Source: Chlamydiota bacterium
Lineage (GTDB): Bacteria > Chlamydiota > Chlamydiia > Chlamydiales > Rhabdochlamydiaceae
Assembly: GCA_013288895.1 (NCBI GenBank)
Contig: JABDAY010000002.1
Location: 16,154-80,153 of the forward strand
Reading direction: 5' to 3'
DNA length: 64,000 nucleotides
The notes beneath the pieces were generated by a model, which saw nothing but the letters and a program-made list of their open reading frames with translations, did not search any database and had not been told where the DNA came from. The stretch's first letter is position 1. Each line of letters begins with the position of its first letter. This document shows, in pieces, positions 1,326 to 51,198 of this stretch. The position numbers and the translations under genes are program-made.

Positions 1326-1380
1326 GAAACGCAAAACGCAAAACAGAAAACGCAAAACCGAAGAGGAGAAGAACGCAGAA
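1326..1380. repeat. PAL-B half element: left arm only, GAAACGCAAAACGCAAAACAGAAAACGCAAAAC plus a GA-rich tract
   Basis: It starts 2 nt after the TAG of the VanX-like gene. It has the same 7-nt periodic unit as 12418-12532 and 39735-39917. No mirror arm is nearby. Confidence 0.5.
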
Positions 1381-1415
1381 ATTTCTTTATCTCGGCAGCG
1401 ATAAAGATATATTTC

Positions 1416-1793
1416 TCATCTAGGATGTGAGCGTAGAGGAAGGACGCGATGAACACGCAGAATTATTGGAGTTAATACGACCACTATACTACGGTTAAAA
1501 GTTCTTGTTCGTTGAACTGTTGGCTCATATCCGGAGTAATGACCTTGTGCAAATATGGCTCTGATCTCGTCATGAGATCTTTGAGCGGTTTGACCCATGA
1601 TAAAATTTTGAGCACGATGGTTGTATATTAATGATGATGCATTTTCTCCTAATACATCATGCATACGTCTGACAGTTTCTAGTCCTAACGCTCCATATGT
1701 TTGTAAAAACGCTGGGGGTGGATAGAGTAATAGTTCATCCACAGGTATCGGTTCATTTGGCTCTCTGTTTACAGGTGGCAATTGTCCAGGCAT
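1416..1793 (-). CDS. Hypothetical protein, 'A-family' paralogue (A0)
   Basis: The 125-aa ORF aligns by eye with the ORFs at 1834-2376 and 4407-5027. Compare PVDELLLYP..YGALGLETV..SSLIYNHRAQNFIMGQTAQR..IFAQGHYSGYEPTV with PVDGPLFHP..YGSEGIATA..SLSMSYNAITDNFSVIETAER..LFAEGHYVGWQPRV. Confidence 0.55.
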   Translation of the reverse strand: MPGQLPPVNREPNEPIPVDELLLYPPPAFLQTYGALGLETVRRMHDVLGENASSLIYNHRAQNFIMGQTAQRSHDEIRAIFAQGHYSGYEPTVQRTRTFNRSIVVVLTPIILRVHRVLPLRSHPR

Positions 1794-1833
1794 AAATTCT
1801 TTCCTTTTATAAGATTGTTTTTAGTTTCTATTA

Positions 1834-2376
1834 CTATATAATATTATGGGGTGGATTCTCTTCGGAGCTCTGAGGATCTGGCGCAGCTGGATGGGGAGAA
1901 GGTGTCATTCTCATCCCAATAAATCGAAGATCTATTTCTTTTTCCTCCTTTTCTTCCTGAGGAGGCGGCGGCATGAGCTCTGGTAAATCATCATAGCTAT
2001 CACTATTACTGCTTAAACTTACTAAGGCAATTTGTATTCTTCCCGATAAAGAACTTCTTTCTAGAACCCTTGGTTGCCATCCAACATAATGACCTTCTGC
2101 AAATAATATAAATCCGATTTGATTCACACCCCATGCTCTTTCTGCAGTTTCAATCACGGAAAAATTGTCAGTAATAGCATTATATGACATTGATAATGAG
2201 TGTCTTGTTAATATATAATTGATAGTTTGGGCAGTTGCTATTCCTTCGCTCCCATATCTTATCCTAAACTCTAGGGATGGATGAAACAATGGGCCATCGA
2301 CAGGAAACAATAAAAATGATAGACGTGGTGATCCACTCGCAGGCTGTAATCCAGACATAATAATTTCTCCTTGCAT
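1834..2376 (-). CDS. Hypothetical protein, 'A-family' paralogue (A1), with an acidic Pro/Glu-rich C-terminal tail
   Basis: 180-aa ORF with the conserved core RHSLSMSYNAITDNFSV..FAEGHYVGWQP. It is divergent from B1 across a shared AT-rich promoter region. Confidence 0.6.
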   Translation of the reverse strand: MQGEIIMSGLQPASGSPRLSFLLFPVDGPLFHPSLEFRIRYGSEGIATAQTINYILTRHSLSMSYNAITDNFSVIETAERAWGVNQIGFILFAEGHYVGWQPRVLERSSLSGRIQIALVSLSSNSDSYDDLPELMPPPPQEEKEEKEIDLRFIGMRMTPSPHPAAPDPQSSEENPPHNII

Positions 2377-2447
2377 AAGTTCATTATATTGTTAATATTA
2401 TATCATTTTTAAAATAACTAGTCATCAAAATTAATTAAAAAAAATAG

Positions 2448-2476
2448 TTGCAATATATTATTAAAAATGCTATGAT
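2448..2476 (+). promoter_or_regulatory. Sigma70-like promoter of B1 (TTGCAA-N17-TATGAT)
   Basis: The hexamers and 17-nt spacer were read directly, about 34 nt upstream of the ATG at 2510. A homologous box precedes B2. Confidence 0.4.
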
Positions 2477-2509
2477 TATCTTTATTAAACAATCAACAAA
2501 AGGCTTATT

Positions 2510-48933: not shown

Positions 48934-49021
48934 AAACAATATAATTAATATTTTAATTGAATTTAAATCCACTTTTATATTAAAATTGTTCATGTAAGGA
49001 AATTTTAACAAGAGGAAATTT

Positions 49022-49288
49022 ATGTCAGTAATAAAACCACCCCCGGCCCCACAATATCCAGATATATTCGCCATAAATGGTATTAACGGTAGGACTCAAC
49101 CGACTAGGACTCAACCGACACCGTGGCCATTTAGCTACGGACCGAACCCAGATGTCTGCAGTAAACCCCACCCCACAACCTCACTAGGAAACATCTCAGA
49201 AAGAGAGACACCACAGCTCCGTGTTGAGGAGATGCAAAAAGAAATGAAAGCTGTACAACAAGTCGGCGATAAGATTTATAAAAGATAG
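49022..49288 (+). CDS. Small Pro/Thr-rich hypothetical protein
   Basis: 88-aa ORF preceded by AAGAGGAAATTT-ATG. No homology recognised. Confidence 0.35.
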   Translation: MSVIKPPPAPQYPDIFAINGINGRTQPTRTQPTPWPFSYGPNPDVCSKPHPTTSLGNISERETPQLRVEEMQKEMKAVQQVGDKIYKR

Positions 49289-49366
49289 GAAAATATGGCC
49301 CGATGATATTTTCTGTCTGCCTCGTAACGCCTACTAACCCGGCTTAAAAATTTTAATCGCAGCACG

Positions 49367-49870
49367 CTAGAGTGTGAGAGCATTAATGGCGCTGTCGTAG
49401 TCGGGTTCGTGGACGATTTCGCCCACTTGCTCGGTGTAGAGGATTTTGTTGTTTTCATCTAGAACGACAACTGCACGGGAGCAAATGCCCGCAAGCGGCC
49501 CATCTATCATCAGGACTCCATAGTCTTTTGCGAAATCGCGCGTGCGGAGCATAGAAAGTGTGATAATAAAAGTGCACTTTTCTGCATCGCAAAATCGTTT
49601 TTGCGCAAAAGGCAAATCTGCCGAAACAACAAGAACCGCAACGTTAGATAATTTTCCTGTCAGCTCATTGAATTTTTTAGCTGATGTTGAACAGGTATCA
49701 GTGTCTAGACTAGGCACAACGGAGAGGATCTTTTTCTTGCCGGCATAGTCTTTTAGCGAATGATCGTTAAATTTTCCGTCGGTGAGCAAAAAGTCGGGTG
49801 CAATGGAACCCACTTTAGGCAGCTTTCCGATGGTATGTATGGGCTGCCCTCTAAATTTTATTTCTGTCAT
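49367..49870 (-). CDS. tpx: Thiol peroxidase (atypical 2-Cys peroxiredoxin)
   Basis: VGSIAPDFLLTD..KKILSVVPSLDTDTCSTSAKKFNE. 167 aa. ATGA start/stop overlap with the upstream methyltransferase. Confidence 0.88.
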   Translation of the reverse strand: MTEIKFRGQPIHTIGKLPKVGSIAPDFLLTDGKFNDHSLKDYAGKKKILSVVPSLDTDTCSTSAKKFNELTGKLSNVAVLVVSADLPFAQKRFCDAEKCTFIITLSMLRTRDFAKDYGVLMIDGPLAGICSRAVVVLDENNKILYTEQVGEIVHEPDYDSAINALTL

Positions 49871-50607
49871 ATCGTCCCCTTTGTAGCATAGCCCAAGTAA
49901 CCTGTAGTTAACGAGCGAGTAAATGAGAAGCTGAATTTTTCACTAACAGTACGGGTAAAAACCATTTTCCAAAAGGGAAAAGTGAAAACATTTGGTTTTA
50001 ATCCAAGTTGTTTTTGGATTGAGAGATTATGTTTGGTAAGGAGGTCTTGAAGCTCACTCGGTTTAATAAAAAGGTGGTAAACATGGAGATCAGGAGGGGA
50101 GTTTTTTACAAACCATGAAATCCCTTTTATGGCCAAAAGATAGCTAAAGAAGTTTCGATTAAAAGTATGGAAAAAGAAAAGACCTCCCGGTTTTAAAATC
50201 CGAGAAGCTTCCCTTATTAAGGCTTCCGGGTTTTCAACGTGTTCGAGGATATCCATGGCGCATACCACATCAAAGCTACTTCCATCAAATGGAAGGGAAG
50301 TCGCATCAGCTTGGGTGTAGATAACTGATTTAGTAGAGTCGTTAACCGTTGCCACTTCAAGGCTTTTGGACGAAAGATCAATGCCGTGAACCTTATAGCC
50401 GTTTTTTGCCAGGTAGTTTGTAAGAAACCCCGCCCCACAACCTATGTCTAGGATGGAAGCATTTGCAGGGATGTTTTCTTTGATCCAGGGATTTCTCGTT
50501 CTATTTTCAGCGCGCAAAAGTGCAATGGGATGGTCTTCTGCCTCATACCACTCTGCATTCAATGTGTCGTAAAATTCATTGTTTATTTTCTTGCGGGACA
50601 TAGACAA
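49867..50607 (-). CDS. Class I SAM-dependent methyltransferase (UbiG-like)
   Basis: ILDIGCGAGFLTNYLAKNGYKVHGIDLS..FDVVCAMDILEHVENPEALIREASRILKPGGLFFF. Confidence 0.8.
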   Translation of the reverse strand: MSMSRKKINNEFYDTLNAEWYEAEDHPIALLRAENRTRNPWIKENIPANASILDIGCGAGFLTNYLAKNGYKVHGIDLSSKSLEVATVNDSTKSVIYTQADATSLPFDGSSFDVVCAMDILEHVENPEALIREASRILKPGGLFFFHTFNRNFFSYLLAIKGISWFVKNSPPDLHVYHLFIKPSELQDLLTKHNLSIQKQLGLKPNVFTFPFWKMVFTRTVSEKFSFSFTRSLTTGYLGYATKGTI

Positions 50608-51028
50608 AATTCCAGTAGATGATTTGATAAAGGCAAAAAAGGGAAATCATGACGAGCTGCGAAATAATAAATGGAGTATAGAGGCTCTGATACCATAGAA
50701 GGCCAAGCGCAGCGAGGATTATGGGATGATTAATAAAAAGGAGGGCATGCAGCCAATGTTCCATAGCCGGGCAGTGGTGCTTGTGGACAAACTCATCTTT
50801 TGTCACCAGAATGCAGGAGAGGAAGGCAAGGCCGATATAGTAGTAGAGGGCTTCGCGGGTGTAAGGGATGGTGAGAACAAAGACAAAACAAGCAATGACA
50901 GAGAGTGTGTCGATGGGATGGCCAATCCGCTCCCATTTGGGAAGCCCCCGCTTCACATGAAACACCATCTCATCTAAGCCAATCGCGACCGCCTGAATCA
51001 AAAACGGTATTGTTAATAGTACCCACAT
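50576..51028 (-). CDS. Small 4-5 TM membrane protein with duplicated DE-x-V-x-H motifs
   Basis: Start at MWVLLTIPF (51028); the longer track ORF begins inside the PAL-A repeat. GLDEMVFHVKR, TKDEFVHKHH and EHWLHALLF. Confidence 0.55.
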   Translation of the reverse strand: MWVLLTIPFLIQAVAIGLDEMVFHVKRGLPKWERIGHPIDTLSVIACFVFVLTIPYTREALYYYIGLAFLSCILVTKDEFVHKHHCPAMEHWLHALLFINHPIILAALGLLWYQSLYTPFIISQLVMISLFCLYQIIYWNFVYVPQENKQ

Positions 51029-51071
51029 GCTTCGAGAGTCTACAAGATATGCGAAAAGAAGAAAAGAAGAA

Positions 51072-51198
51072 GATCGGGCACGCACGCGGGCACGGGCACG
51101 GGCACGAAAGAAAGAAAGAAAGAAAGAAAGAAACGTCTAAACTCTCTTCTTCTCTCTCTCTTTCGTGCCCGTGCCCGTGCCCGCGTGCGTGCCCGATC
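51072..51198. repeat. PAL-A palindromic element with expanded (GAAA)7 inner tract
   Basis: The outer arms are identical to 20388-20497. The inner tract is GAAAGAAAGAAAGAAAGAAAGAAAGAAA. It lies between the type III PKS stop and the next gene. Confidence 0.8.

Follow-up and report, generated by a model that had tools for sequence, protein, structure and literature searches.

REP/BIME/REPIN sequences are RAYT-associated repeats of Proteobacteria for which roles in termination and mRNA stabilisation are hypothesised; their copy number varies between close strains (PMC3733652). The REP unit is a hairpin of 20-40 nt with a stem of 8-9 bp and a GTAG or CGTC tag, and some families of the Rickettsia palindromic elements (RPE) bear a CGTC tag as well (PMC3733652). 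In sponge mitochondria diverse hairpin elements, the RHE, repeatedly invade the intergenic regions of compact genomes, and close relatives differ greatly (PMC2800124).

Here we analyse a stretch of 64,000 nucleotides from a Chlamydiota bacterium (the window) with the palindromes PAL-A to PAL-E. Going by sequence comparison, the window probably carries a superfamily of small non-coding, non-autonomous selfish hairpin elements of a REP/MITE-like kind, any terminator or attenuator effects being incidental. With REP/BIME/REPIN they have in common that intergenic units are present singly or as inverted dimers (head-to-head or tail-to-tail), that dimers yield long hairpins, that several families share one genome, and that gene 3' ends and operon interiors are occupied. 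They differ because the single arm is not self-complementary, is untagged and consists of tandem hexa- to octamers and purine tracts, and because the window ORFs include no RAYT gene. Further, REP sequences are, as far as is known, confined to particular lineages, whereas the PAL-A arm is common to several phyla.

Transcribed copies of bacterial MITEs form hairpins which affect termination and processing. The likeness to MITEs (Correia/NEMIS of Neisseria, ERIC, RUP, Nezha) extends to a length of 100-200 bp, non-autonomy, inverted-repeat ends, presence/absence polymorphism and the ability to alter ORF termini by insertion beside or into gene ends. Copies in BWMinHeated MAG2 and in a MAG labelled Acidobacteria, where A arms enclose a conserved non-palindromic core of ~90 nt, display classic MITE anatomy. 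In contrast, the window elements are nearly all palindrome, have no consistent target-site duplication, and no parent IS sharing their ends turned up; moreover, different genomes use one and the same arm in either polarity. A terminal-inverted-repeat transposase would not accept such two-way use.

RPEs, by description, also comprise several palindromic families of ~100-150 bp in an obligate intracellular host, and an element translated as part of a host protein has its counterpart in the 17-residue recF tail reported below. RPEs typically are in-frame insertions inside genes, whereas the present elements are intergenic with one C-terminal read-in. Repeated hairpin invasion of intergenic regions in a compact genome is the trait shared with sponge RHE; these, however, reside in organelle genomes, are far shorter and have no sequence in common with ours, and we know of no cross-lineage identical module reported for them. 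The uptake sequences of Neisseria (DUS) and Haemophilus (USS) are conserved oligonucleotides, single or as inverted pairs downstream of genes, a pair constituting a terminator hairpin. A specific conserved sequence, singly or as an inverted pair downstream of genes, is also what we see here; yet uptake sequences have 9-12 nt, are competence-linked and come as a single family in each genome, whereas the arms here measure 30-45 nt, belong to several families and have no competence link known to us.

Palindromes of the window

Each element was folded on both strands with RNAfold and compared with 100 dinucleotide shuffles per strand, from which z was obtained. Orthologous sites were supplied by L075 and L086 of a comparison relative (89-92% protein identity). 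The features are:

11244..11391 (core 11263-11371), unstranded: PAL-A1; 57-nt arms, 84% complementary; MFE -108/-90 kcal/mol; z -18/-13
11312..11368, minus strand: recF 3' end read from the PAL-A1 right arm (protein alignment with L075 recF)
20380..20505, unstranded: PAL-A2; 46-nt arms, 98% complementary; z -20/-18
51068..51202, unstranded: PAL-A3; 60-nt arms, 92% complementary; z -21/-20; (GAAA)7 inner tract
1326..1380, plus strand: solo PAL-B unit; AAACGCA-unit arm and purine tail, zero T in 55 nt
12418..12532, unstranded: PAL-B2; 41-nt arms, 88% complementary; z -7/-8
13667..13746, unstranded: B3deg, doubtful degenerate B-like locus; z -1.6/+0.2; aligns poorly to B arms
16068..16115, minus strand: solo PAL-B unit; arm and purine tail; abuts the smpB stop codon
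39733..39920, unstranded: PAL-B5, composite; two nested 43-nt arm pairs; z -17/-14
33456..33570 (core 33490-33549), unstranded: PAL-C1; (GAA)n and (TTC)n frames; z -4 to -5
43294..43366, unstranded: PAL-C2, decayed; right arm intact, left arm degenerate; z -2.5/-1.1; between convergent genes
35775..35985, minus strand: PAL-D element; 116-nt palindrome (35818-35933) plus conserved asymmetric flanks; z -16/-21
32246..32332, unstranded: PAL-E; outer arms of GATGAAC/CATTACT units; z -4.4/-6.2

All elements lie between ORFs, and the palindromes of the repeat families span ~60-190 bp. With z of -13 to -21 (A1-A3), -16 to -21 (D), -14 to -17 (B5), -7 to -8 (B2), -4 to -6 (E) and -4 to -5 (C1) on the two strands, the three PAL-A copies, B2, B5, D, E and C1 are real palindromes well above chance expectation. 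The preliminary description had counted at least 14 palindromic loci. The arms of its long inverted repeats were found where it had placed them (PAL-A, D, B2, B5), but the total shrinks to eight convincing palindromes, one decayed, two solo units and one doubtful locus. Its 13-nt 'vestige' at 5139-5151 is without support. Its degenerate PAL-B at 13667-13746 has no significant hairpin: B-arm likeness is confined to the right part, (TTTTGCG)3, and the left part is promoter sequence orthologous in L075. Its second PAL-C copy is indeed related to C1, the right arm matching the reverse complement of the C1 left arm, yet folds weakly (z -1 to -2.5) and is decayed.

The PAL-A arms have 46-60 nt and 84-98% complementarity (n=3). 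In PAL-A1 the order is (GAA)n-GATC-[GGGCAC/GCACGC arm]-(GAAA)2-loop-mirror image. The left arms of all three copies are identical across 43 nt although the loci are unrelated: PAL-A1 is flanked by the convergent genes PHO4 (10270-11250, +) and recF (-), PAL-A2 by leuS (stop at 20380) and the Kdo-transferase gene kdtA (ATG at 20519), and PAL-A3 is downstream of the stop codon of a chalcone-synthase-like gene (51208-52209, -). As described previously, the (GAAA)n tract differs in length, with two units in A1 and A2 and seven in A3, and GATC ends with (GAA)n/(TTC)n frames are present in PAL-A and PAL-C1.

Arms, units and proposed exchange between them

The basic unit is an oriented single arm of about 45-60 nt, composed of T-poor tandem units of 6-8 nt (GGGCAC/GCACGC, AAAACGC, GGTTAC, CGCAGAG, GATGAAC) with purine tracts alongside. 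Units are present alone or as inverted pairs; a long palindrome is such an inverted pair. The earlier claim of tandem-unit arms holds for A, B and C, while D has three CGCAGAG units and E two or three units. B arms (n=6) are about 88-97% identical and at five loci share one irregular unit order. The loci 1326-1380 and 16068-16115, formerly taken as palindrome halves, turn out, when aligned to the B arms, to be whole solo arms, each with its purine tail, and not truncated palindromes; the former aligns over its full length and forms no hairpin (z = -1).

The families are not all unrelated in primary sequence, as had been claimed. A arms match C arms at 21 of 29 positions (GATCGG..ACGCA..CGG..ACGG..ACG), the differing dinucleotide being the same in every unit, and A and E have an inner GA-rich/CTTAAG core in common. 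In L033 an A-type left arm is joined to an E-type right arm. The outer arms of PAL-B5 are B arms which enclose a palindrome of CAGGATA/GGATGGA units (39770-39872), similar to a free-standing palindrome of the relative (L086 2738-2835). These composites and the one chimera suggest that modules nest centrally within other palindromes, with shared purine cores as their points of recombination. Common unit grammar together with such nesting and recombination would account for the shared plan of the families.

PAL-D, with arms of 55 nt that are 95% complementary and a small 8-bp hairpin in its far flank, was aligned with copies from L075 (6350-6560) and L086 (9750-9960); the copies have the non-palindromic flanks in common. 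Between two copies all three stem substitutions are compensated; among three copies five are compensated versus two broken in 50 stem pairs. Two copies in L084 differ by an 11-nt block that is swapped on both arms, and in an L011 copy the unit variant GGGCTC is spreading within one arm. The pattern indicates that arms remain complementary because what changes in one arm is transferred to its partner, with intra-strand template switching as the probable route. Template-switch mutagenesis at quasi-palindromes accounts for compensated double changes and block swaps, i.e., for upkeep of symmetry, not for dispersal. Slippage or conversion might spread unit variants along an arm and so generate new families, e.g., PAL-C from PAL-A.

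Turnover among relatives and occurrence elsewhere

The comparison of orthologous intergenic regions, suggested in the preliminary description, revealed both presence/absence and replacement of families. PAL-A1, B2, B5 and E are absent from the orthologous sites of the relative: the PHO4/recF junction of L075 has no PAL-A1, the dnaN/recF junction is an empty 8 nt, the PAL-B5 site in L086 is empty and PAL-E is missing from its spacer. The PAL-A2 site in L075 contains an unrelated 200-nt palindrome, and in L086 the spacer orthologous to that of PAL-C1 harbours a PAL-A copy, likewise framed by (GAA)n/(TTC)n. In L082, L084 and L085 leuS and kdtA overlap. Judged by these three further relatives overlap appears to be the ancestral state, and PAL-A2 and PAL-B2 evidently occupy the interior of ancestral operons.

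PAL-A1 appears to have rewritten the C-terminus of recF. In a protein alignment L075 recF terminates ...VENGSVS*, and the window recF gains a tail of 17 residues, GHARGHEHGHEIRKEKKP*, translated from the PAL-A1 right arm. The motif CNCATTTTY (8-9 bp), with one copy in L075, where PHO4 and recF overlap, stands on both sides of the PAL-A1 insert; from this one diverged comparison we infer the sole target duplication.

An independent short-read assembly of the same strain (Logan) has contig ends inside PAL-A1, PAL-A2 and one B arm, and contig L074 begins within the solo B unit 16068..16115; breaks exactly inside PAL-A and PAL-B arms are what one expects of repeats.

Outside the chlamydiae the ptsP 3' end of Coxiellaceae carries an A-type element, a plain hairpin or an unrelated 420-nt palindrome, with PtsP proteins 88-97% identical, the same kind of turnover. 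The comparisons show apparent gain, loss and replacement between relatives and characterise the elements as dispersed repeats rather than terminators evolved in place. Presence/absence would fit gain as well as loss, and the evidence for transposition is comparative throughout.

About 18 other genomes contain the exact 24-mer of the PAL-A arm, not counting one match due to chance: many chlamydiae, Coxiellaceae/Legionellales, an assignment checked via a flanking gene, other Gammaproteobacteria and the Acidobacteria-labelled MAG (61% GC). Often the arm is solo or of reversed polarity there, solo arms making up a large share of occurrences. No known RNA family matched the elements.

Mobility and alternative readings

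The REP/RPE-like mobile element proposed earlier gains support from near-identical copies at unrelated loci, presence/absence and family replacement in the close relative, the assembly breaks and the entry of PAL-A1 into the recF end. Elements would enter, leave and replace each other, like REP/REPIN and MITEs, at those few places where the intergenic space of a compact genome tolerates them; the places occupied are 3' ends of genes, junctions within operons and, now and then, promoter regions between divergent genes. A search for a REP-associated tyrosine transposase-like gene had been suggested earlier; Pfam scans, covering every one of the ~52 ORFs in the window, disclosed no transposase, RAYT, integrase or reverse transcriptase. 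ORFs beside the motif at 72 loci did not recur, and none of 15 elements has a target-site duplication directly at its ends. Candidate movers are a trans-acting structure-specific transposase encoded outside the window, or, without any transposase, copy-choice or gene conversion from one hairpin site to another, for which purine/pyrimidine or A/T tracts may serve as microhomology.

Same-site replacement could instead mean selection for a hairpin at this place, i.e., function and not selfish spread. One rival reading takes the elements for bidirectional intrinsic terminators or 3'-end stabilisers, selected for that task alone; repeat families would arise because working terminator modules are copied or converted between gene ends. 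The bidirectional-terminator reading of the preliminary description stands insofar as A2, A3, B5 and D have, on the relevant strand, a U-tract after a GC-rich stem base (T/C-rich tracts on both strands). Most copies directly follow stop codons, the hairpin is stabler on the transcribed strand in four of five informative tandem-gene cases, where mismatches become G-U, and at one gene end in Coxiellaceae an A-type element stands in place of an ordinary GC hairpin. However, PAL-A2 and PAL-B2 (the latter separating dnaN, with its stop at 12533, from recF, which starts at about 12403) leave only 14-20 nt to the next start codon, at junctions which in relatives are overlapping or tightly coupled operons; a promoter would not fit there. 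B2 lacks a U-tract on the transcribed strand, C1 (DoxX and MFS genes) and B3deg are flanked by the starts of divergent genes, hairpins are missing altogether from seven convergent gene pairs of the window, reverse-polarity copies elsewhere are followed by A-runs instead of U-runs, and solo arms are unable to form hairpins. We consider dedicated terminators unlikely. Within the selfish-element reading, transcribed elements would form very stable RNA hairpins acting as terminator, attenuator or processing/stabilising site depending on the flanks; effects on expression would be a side effect or exaptation, not the origin.

Of similarly low probability is the view that the PAL-A arm, perhaps other arms too, is a selected functional site in many phyla, a protein-binding array or a G-quadruplex signal, with palindromes as secondary pairings. 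The arm is exactly identical over 24-32 nt between Chlamydiae, Coxiellaceae/Legionellales, other Gammaproteobacteria and the Acidobacteria-labelled MAG, which is unusual for REP/MITE and hints at a sequence-specific function. It contains at least four G3 tracts, and a distant chlamydia has a solo arm 11 nt past the PHO4 stop, the very gene end of PAL-A1. Since the arm is found alone as well as in either polarity, the conserved entity would be the arm, not the hairpin. Yet B, C, D and E have no G-runs, the arm is missing at orthologous sites of the closest relative, solo arms have no consistent orientation to neighbouring genes, and no candidate protein is known. Nor is the PAL-B arm widespread; a metagenome scan gave six matches, all non-palindromic.

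Local origin, i.e., microsatellite slippage followed by fold-back (hairpin-primed) synthesis at each site without movement between loci, is very improbable. Microsatellite-like arms, the variable (GAAA)n number, joint change of both arms and the lack of a transposase (~52 window ORFs) and of target duplications (15 elements) would suit it. Against it, an irregular arm whose odd GCACGC unit always takes the same position recurs at three window loci and in about 18 other genomes, B arms at five loci have the same irregular unit order, and PAL-D copies share non-palindromic flanks. Local origin is largely refuted because it cannot repeatedly yield identical irregular sequences across loci and genomes. 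The slippage/fold-back idea of the preliminary description survives as a process which may maintain complementarity and alter unit and tract numbers (compensated changes, GGGCTC spread, (GAAA)n); as separate generation per locus it does not fit, because the same irregular arm recurs in those other genomes.

That the palindromes are assembly or amplification artefacts, e.g., chimeric fold-back reads, can practically be dismissed: short-read contigs do break at the elements and the genomes are MAGs, but the same elements and flanks are present in independent assemblies with contigs of up to 2.3 Mb, intact syntenic genes surround them, and the copies diverge evolutionarily with compensated changes.

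Palindromes, arms and families

The window (43% GC) belongs to an uncultured chlamydial genome. Its LeuRS and GMP-reductase-like proteins have Chlamydiota/Rhabdochlamydiaceae MAGs as best named relatives, and among ~52 gene calls are two TLC-family ATP/ADP translocases (Pfam). Translocases of this family are typical for the lifestyle of such chlamydiae. The intergenic palindromes, grouped as families PAL-A to PAL-E, were examined with an inverted-repeat scan, and every locus was folded on both strands and compared with 100 dinucleotide shuffles.

Palindromic loci of the window (arm lengths and complementarity from the inverted-repeat scan; z, folding versus shuffles)
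11244-11391, 20380-20505, 51068-51202: the three PAL-A copies (A1 to A3), arms 46-60 nt, 84-98% complementary, z -13 to -21
35818-35933: PAL-D, arms 55 nt, 95% complementary, z -16 to -21
PAL-B5: two nested arm pairs of 43 nt each, z -14 to -17
PAL-B2: arms 41 nt, 88% complementary, z -7 to -8
PAL-E: z -4 to -6
PAL-C1: z -4 to -5
PAL-C2: z -1 to -2.5
13667-13746: supposed degenerate B copy, z -1.6 and +0.2, no signal

A preliminary description had counted at least 14 palindromic loci. Eight palindromes in the 64 kb are convincing; the remainder comprises one decayed copy, two solo arms and one doubtful locus. The degenerate B palindrome at 13667-13746 is without fold signal, and there is no support for a 13-nt B 'vestige' at 5139. 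What had been described for PAL-A, i.e., the GATC ends, the (GAA)n/(TTC)n frames and the two versus seven GAAA units, was confirmed. A known RNA family is excluded by an Rfam scan (gathering and E-value thresholds): only two tRNAs pass the gathering threshold and the sub-threshold matches of the palindromes are to miRNA-precursor models, i.e., generic hairpins.

Two B loci, initially taken for half palindromes, can be aligned end to end with the arms of B2 and B5, and each has its own purine tail. They are, therefore, solo units, and their folding is no better than that of shuffles (z about -1 to +0.7). The repeat unit is the arm rather than the palindrome, and solo and dimer forms both exist. 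In the A arm the unit GGGCAC is repeated directly; arms of A and C start with GATC, those of B with GAAACGC and that of D with CATCAGC. The unit strand is nearly devoid of T, with none in the 55 nt of a solo B unit and none in the 59 nt of the A3 arm plus its tract. By our own arithmetic, with a T frequency of ~0.28, the chance of such an absence is ~1e-8. As a post hoc observation, the pentamer ACGCA recurs in arms of PAL-A, B, C and D, i.e., in every family but PAL-E (CACGCAC, AAACGCAA, TTACGCAT, GACGCAGAG).

Across genomes A arms are found solo, as G-arm...C-arm pairs and as C-arm...G-arm pairs. The pair arrangement is lineage-specific: the former is seen in the clade of the window, the latter in SW_18, Coxiellaceae, other Gammaproteobacteria and a MAG labelled Acidobacteria. 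In some genomes the A arms enclose a conserved, non-palindromic core of ~90 nt, a MITE-like anatomy; L049, L051, L053, L061, L015 and L055 have copies with a non-palindromic core. Solo A arms show no clear preference for one orientation with respect to the genes next to them.

The families had been considered unrelated in sequence yet built to one plan. The common plan stands; the unrelatedness does not. A and C arms are identical at 21 of 29 positions, and the differences (GC to TT, CG to TA) are repeated in every unit; moreover, A and C occupy the same site, the DoxX-MFS spacer, in two related genomes. In one PAL-A copy of a relative, one arm has the variant GGGCTC at each of its three units and the other arm at a single unit, a state that resembles unit-wise homogenisation caught midway. 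A and E possess the same inner core of purine tract, CTTAAG and pyrimidine tract. In another chlamydial genome (L033, 2395-2500) a PAL-A left arm, this GA-rich core and a PAL-E-type right arm are joined in a chimera with outer arms that are not complementary. In B5, B arms enclose an inner palindrome, and this one is related to an element that stands alone in a relative. Nested palindromes of 340-420 nt, unrelated in sequence to PAL-A through PAL-E, are present in a Coxiellaceae genome (L090, 3290-3740) and in the closest relative of the window (L086, 2830-3180 and 7500-7900), with minimum free energies of the folded regions down to -324 kcal/mol.

The arms change together. Between two D copies all three stem substitutions are compensated; among three copies five pairs are compensated and two broken. 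In two copies of another family from L084 an 11-nt block is replaced on both arms, which is better explained by templated arm-to-arm copying than by pair-by-pair selection. Template switching in quasi-palindromes is an established mechanism for such copying. Both modular composites and compensated arm changes are shown for these repeats.

Gain, loss and replacement at orthologous sites

Two contigs of one MAG, L075 and L086, are syntenic with the window; identities are 89% for LeuRS and 92% for the GMP-reductase-like protein.

Occupancy of orthologous sites in the window and in the syntenic relative
PHO4/recF junction: window, PAL-A1; L075, convergent genes overlapping by 32 bp, no element
dnaN-recF junction: window, PAL-B2 (115 nt); L075, a junction of 8 nt
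TLC-DsbB spacer: window, 140 nt including PAL-E; L086, 53 nt, no element
Spacer after the GMP-reductase-like gene: window, 251 nt including PAL-B5; L086, 62 nt, no element
leuS-kdtA spacer: window, PAL-A2; L075, an unrelated palindrome of ~200 nt
DoxX-MFS spacer: window, PAL-C1; L086, a PAL-A copy

A1, B2, B5 and E are absent in the relative, i.e., they are insertion polymorphisms between close relatives. In three relatives at a greater distance, leuS overlaps the Kdo-transferase gene by 4-8 nt; consequently, the elements at this site are insertions into an operon junction. PAL-A1 has replaced the end of recF: a 17-residue tail, GHARGHEHGHEIRKEKKP*, is read from its right arm, and is missing in recF of L075, which ends ...VENGSVS*. 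An 8-9 bp sequence which is single in the overlapping PHO4/recF genes of the relative is present on both sides of the PAL-A1 insert. PAL-D has two further copies in the relative, at other places. All three align beyond the palindrome in non-palindromic flanks of ~35 and ~45 nt; thus, this repeat is longer than its palindrome, and oriented. Logan contigs of the same strain break off precisely within PAL-A1, PAL-A2 and a B arm, the behaviour expected of repeats when short reads are assembled. The elements are dispersed in many copies and are gained, lost and replaced at fixed sites.

A solo A arm in a distant chlamydial genome (L044, 7492-7530) is located 11 nt past the stop codon of the PHO4 orthologue, the same gene end as that of PAL-A1 in the window. 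This could be a coincidence or a preferred site.

The PAL-A arm across phyla and the question of function

An exact 24-mer of the A arm (units GGGCAC, GCACGC, GGGCAC and GGGCAC, one of them irregular) is present in at least 72 stretches of species-representative genomes. The matches listed comprise 72 stretches from about 19 genomes, or about 18 after dropping Miniimonas arenae, the single match of which looks like chance and is not counted. Convergence does not explain identity over 24-32 non-coding bases that include one and the same irregular unit. The simplest reading of these matches is that the A arm has spread horizontally. That it is kept by a conserved sequence-specific function is conceivable. 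Neither a sigma-54 promoter nor a KOPS-like motif is a tenable explanation for GGGCAC, given the misfit in consensus spacing, and a G-quadruplex fails as a common principle because arms of B, C, D and E are without G3 runs.

MAG contamination does not account for the matches in Coxiellaceae or in the Acidobacteria MAG. The Coxiellaceae-labelled loci are truly gammaproteobacterial: at a distance of 27 nt from one element lies a ptsP gene that shares 75% identity with its Aquicella lusitana counterpart and has Gammaproteobacteria as closest named hits. The eight loci of the Acidobacteria MAG average 61% GC, which dismisses contamination there as well. A phage or plasmid vector was rejected since the A arm is absent from IMG/VR and has one weak partial match in PLSDB (33 nt, E = 6e-3), judged to be chance. 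Among genomes with 88-97% identical PtsP proteins, the 3' end of ptsP is occupied by an A-type element, by a GC hairpin of the ordinary kind or by an unrelated palindrome of 420 nt; site-specific turnover thus occurs also outside the Chlamydiae. The PAL-B arm is not widespread. None of its six matches in a metagenome scan is palindromic; all are simple runs resembling (AAAACGC)n, and the GC-rich DNA around them is unrelated.

The palindromes had been suggested to be bidirectional intrinsic terminators. Stop codons directly precede most copies, A2(+), A3(-), B5(+) and D(-) have a T-rich tract after a GC-rich stem base on the relevant strand, and in four of five informative cases it is the transcribed strand that forms the more stable hairpin. 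Judged from these sequence features, termination or attenuation is a likely effect of some copies. However, A2 ends 14-20 nt ahead of the next ATG and B2, which has no U-tract, 15 nt ahead of the recF ATG; both junctions are operons in relatives. C1 has divergent gene starts on its two sides, seven convergent gene pairs of the window are without a hairpin, reverse-polarity copies elsewhere have A-runs after the hairpin, and solo arms are unable to form one. In PAL-E the U-tract after the GC-rich stem is weak. Copies at operon junctions, between divergent genes, as solo arms and with A-runs argue that termination is not the reason why these families exist.

Known systems, possible spread and gene neighbourhood

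The closest known systems are REP/REPIN sequences and MITEs. REP/REPINs occur as singletons and inverted dimers, with several families per genome (PMC3733652). Such singletons and inverted dimers, head-to-head and tail-to-tail, are observed here for the A arm, and singletons for solo B units. Unlike here, where single arms are no hairpins, the REP unit is itself an imperfect palindrome of 20-40 nt, and its GTAG (or CGTC) end tag is missing from the arms. Without unit hairpin and tag, membership in the REP class fails. The REP hallmark, a RAYT (Y1 transposase) gene flanked by repeats, is present neither among the ~52 ORFs of the window nor as a recurrent ORF in the 72 loci listed. The earlier proposal of a REP- or RPE-like mobile element is borne out in that the repeats are dispersed, polymorphic and solo or dimeric, but not in REP unit hairpin and tag. 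With MITEs the elements share insertion polymorphism, altered gene ends and a short non-coding sequence between terminal inverted repeats. They differ from classical MITEs, and are not to be counted among them, because the fixed-length target-site duplication is missing, i.e., no direct repeat abuts any of 15 elements, and one arm is used in two polarities. The sole presumed duplication is that of 8-9 bp at A1. An autonomous IS with the same ends, the parent of a MITE, was found neither in the 72 loci listed nor in IMG/VR, and in PLSDB there is only the chance match. Looser analogues are mitochondrial hairpin elements (PMC2800124) and Rickettsia palindromic elements. The latter typically lie in-frame within genes and are translated, whereas here the recF C-terminus is the only read-in and other copies are intergenic. 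Thus, the repeats are real, and they vary the known systems rather than match them.

A mobilising gene is not evident. Pfam detects no transposase, RAYT, integrase or reverse transcriptase among all ~52 window ORFs; all-against-all BLAST of the ORFs from the 72 loci listed yields no motif-associated recurrent neighbour, and in none of these loci is a gene flanked by a pair of A arms. The elements are probably selfish, non-autonomous repeats. Their movement could be due to an enzyme with structure specificity whose gene lies elsewhere, or to copy-choice or gene conversion that links hairpin sites via flanking low-complexity tracts; template switching would keep the arms symmetrical. Target duplications are absent, one arm is used in both polarities and existing hairpins are overwritten, all of which makes an undescribed propagation mechanism conceivable. 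In its most far-reaching form, which we consider rather unlikely, the PAL-A arm would be a non-coding module of ~30 nt crossing phyla (Chlamydiae, Coxiellaceae/Legionellales, other Gammaproteobacteria and the Acidobacteria-labelled MAG, mostly host-associated), and it and its sister families would propagate with no transposase dedicated to them. Flanking purine/pyrimidine or A/T tracts would serve as microhomology when one hairpin or terminator site is converted by another or copied into it (gene conversion or copy-choice), and template switching within palindromes together with unit-wise homogenisation would give birth to new families (A to C) and nested composites. If true, this would be a new propagation mode for selfish DNA which specifically overwrites terminators.

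Searches of the literature by motif sequence and topic returned no description of the motif or of such repeats in chlamydiae. Small intergenic repeats are unreported for environmental chlamydiae and amoeba-associated bacteria in the literature searched, the usual focus being genes and IS elements. Over short evolutionary distances, the elements remodel gene ends as well as the junctions of operons, and short-read assemblies are fragmented by them. They constitute a natural series of very long RNA/DNA hairpins in which termination, processing and genome stability are testable, and an exact non-coding module of 24-32 nt across phyla is a compact marker for DNA exchange among intracellular bacteria.

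Further features of the window
3967-4115: GCAGCT/CAGCAG-rich repetitive coding stretch within the ORF at 3472-4410, giving spurious inverted-repeat hits; a Logan contig begins nearby
13723-16051: two adjacent zf-MYND genes (eukaryote-like domain) between dnaN and smpB, bracketed by a doubtful B-like sequence and a solo B arm
21806-21972: tandem pair of tRNA-Met (CAT) genes with a gap of 18 nt, following the Kdo-transferase gene
32217-32240: perfect 10-bp hairpin, GCACTAGCAT-AAAA-ATGCTAGTGC, adjoining PAL-E
36022-38688 (-): autotransporter gene
45554-45604 (-): ordinary-looking GC-rich hairpin between two minus-strand genes, z = -7 on the minus strand, unrelated to the PAL families
54866-63811 (-): giant ORF of 2981 residues, sole Pfam match DUF3638

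The zf-MYND pair is missing in L075, in which a PAL-D copy is located in the spacer instead. The autotransporter gene is absent in L086 between GT2 and the GMP-reductase-like gene; PAL-D beside it (35775-35985) is inverted with respect to the relative's copy at that locus. The DUF3638 orthologue of the relative (L086, 1-1592) adjoins the TLC/DsbB block, indicating a rearrangement between the two genomes. The tRNA-Met pair also follows the Kdo-transferase gene in L082 and L084. The half-hairpin ATGCTAGTGC recurs at 5129-5138, beside the supposed B vestige, and the hairpin at 32217-32240 may represent another small repeat.
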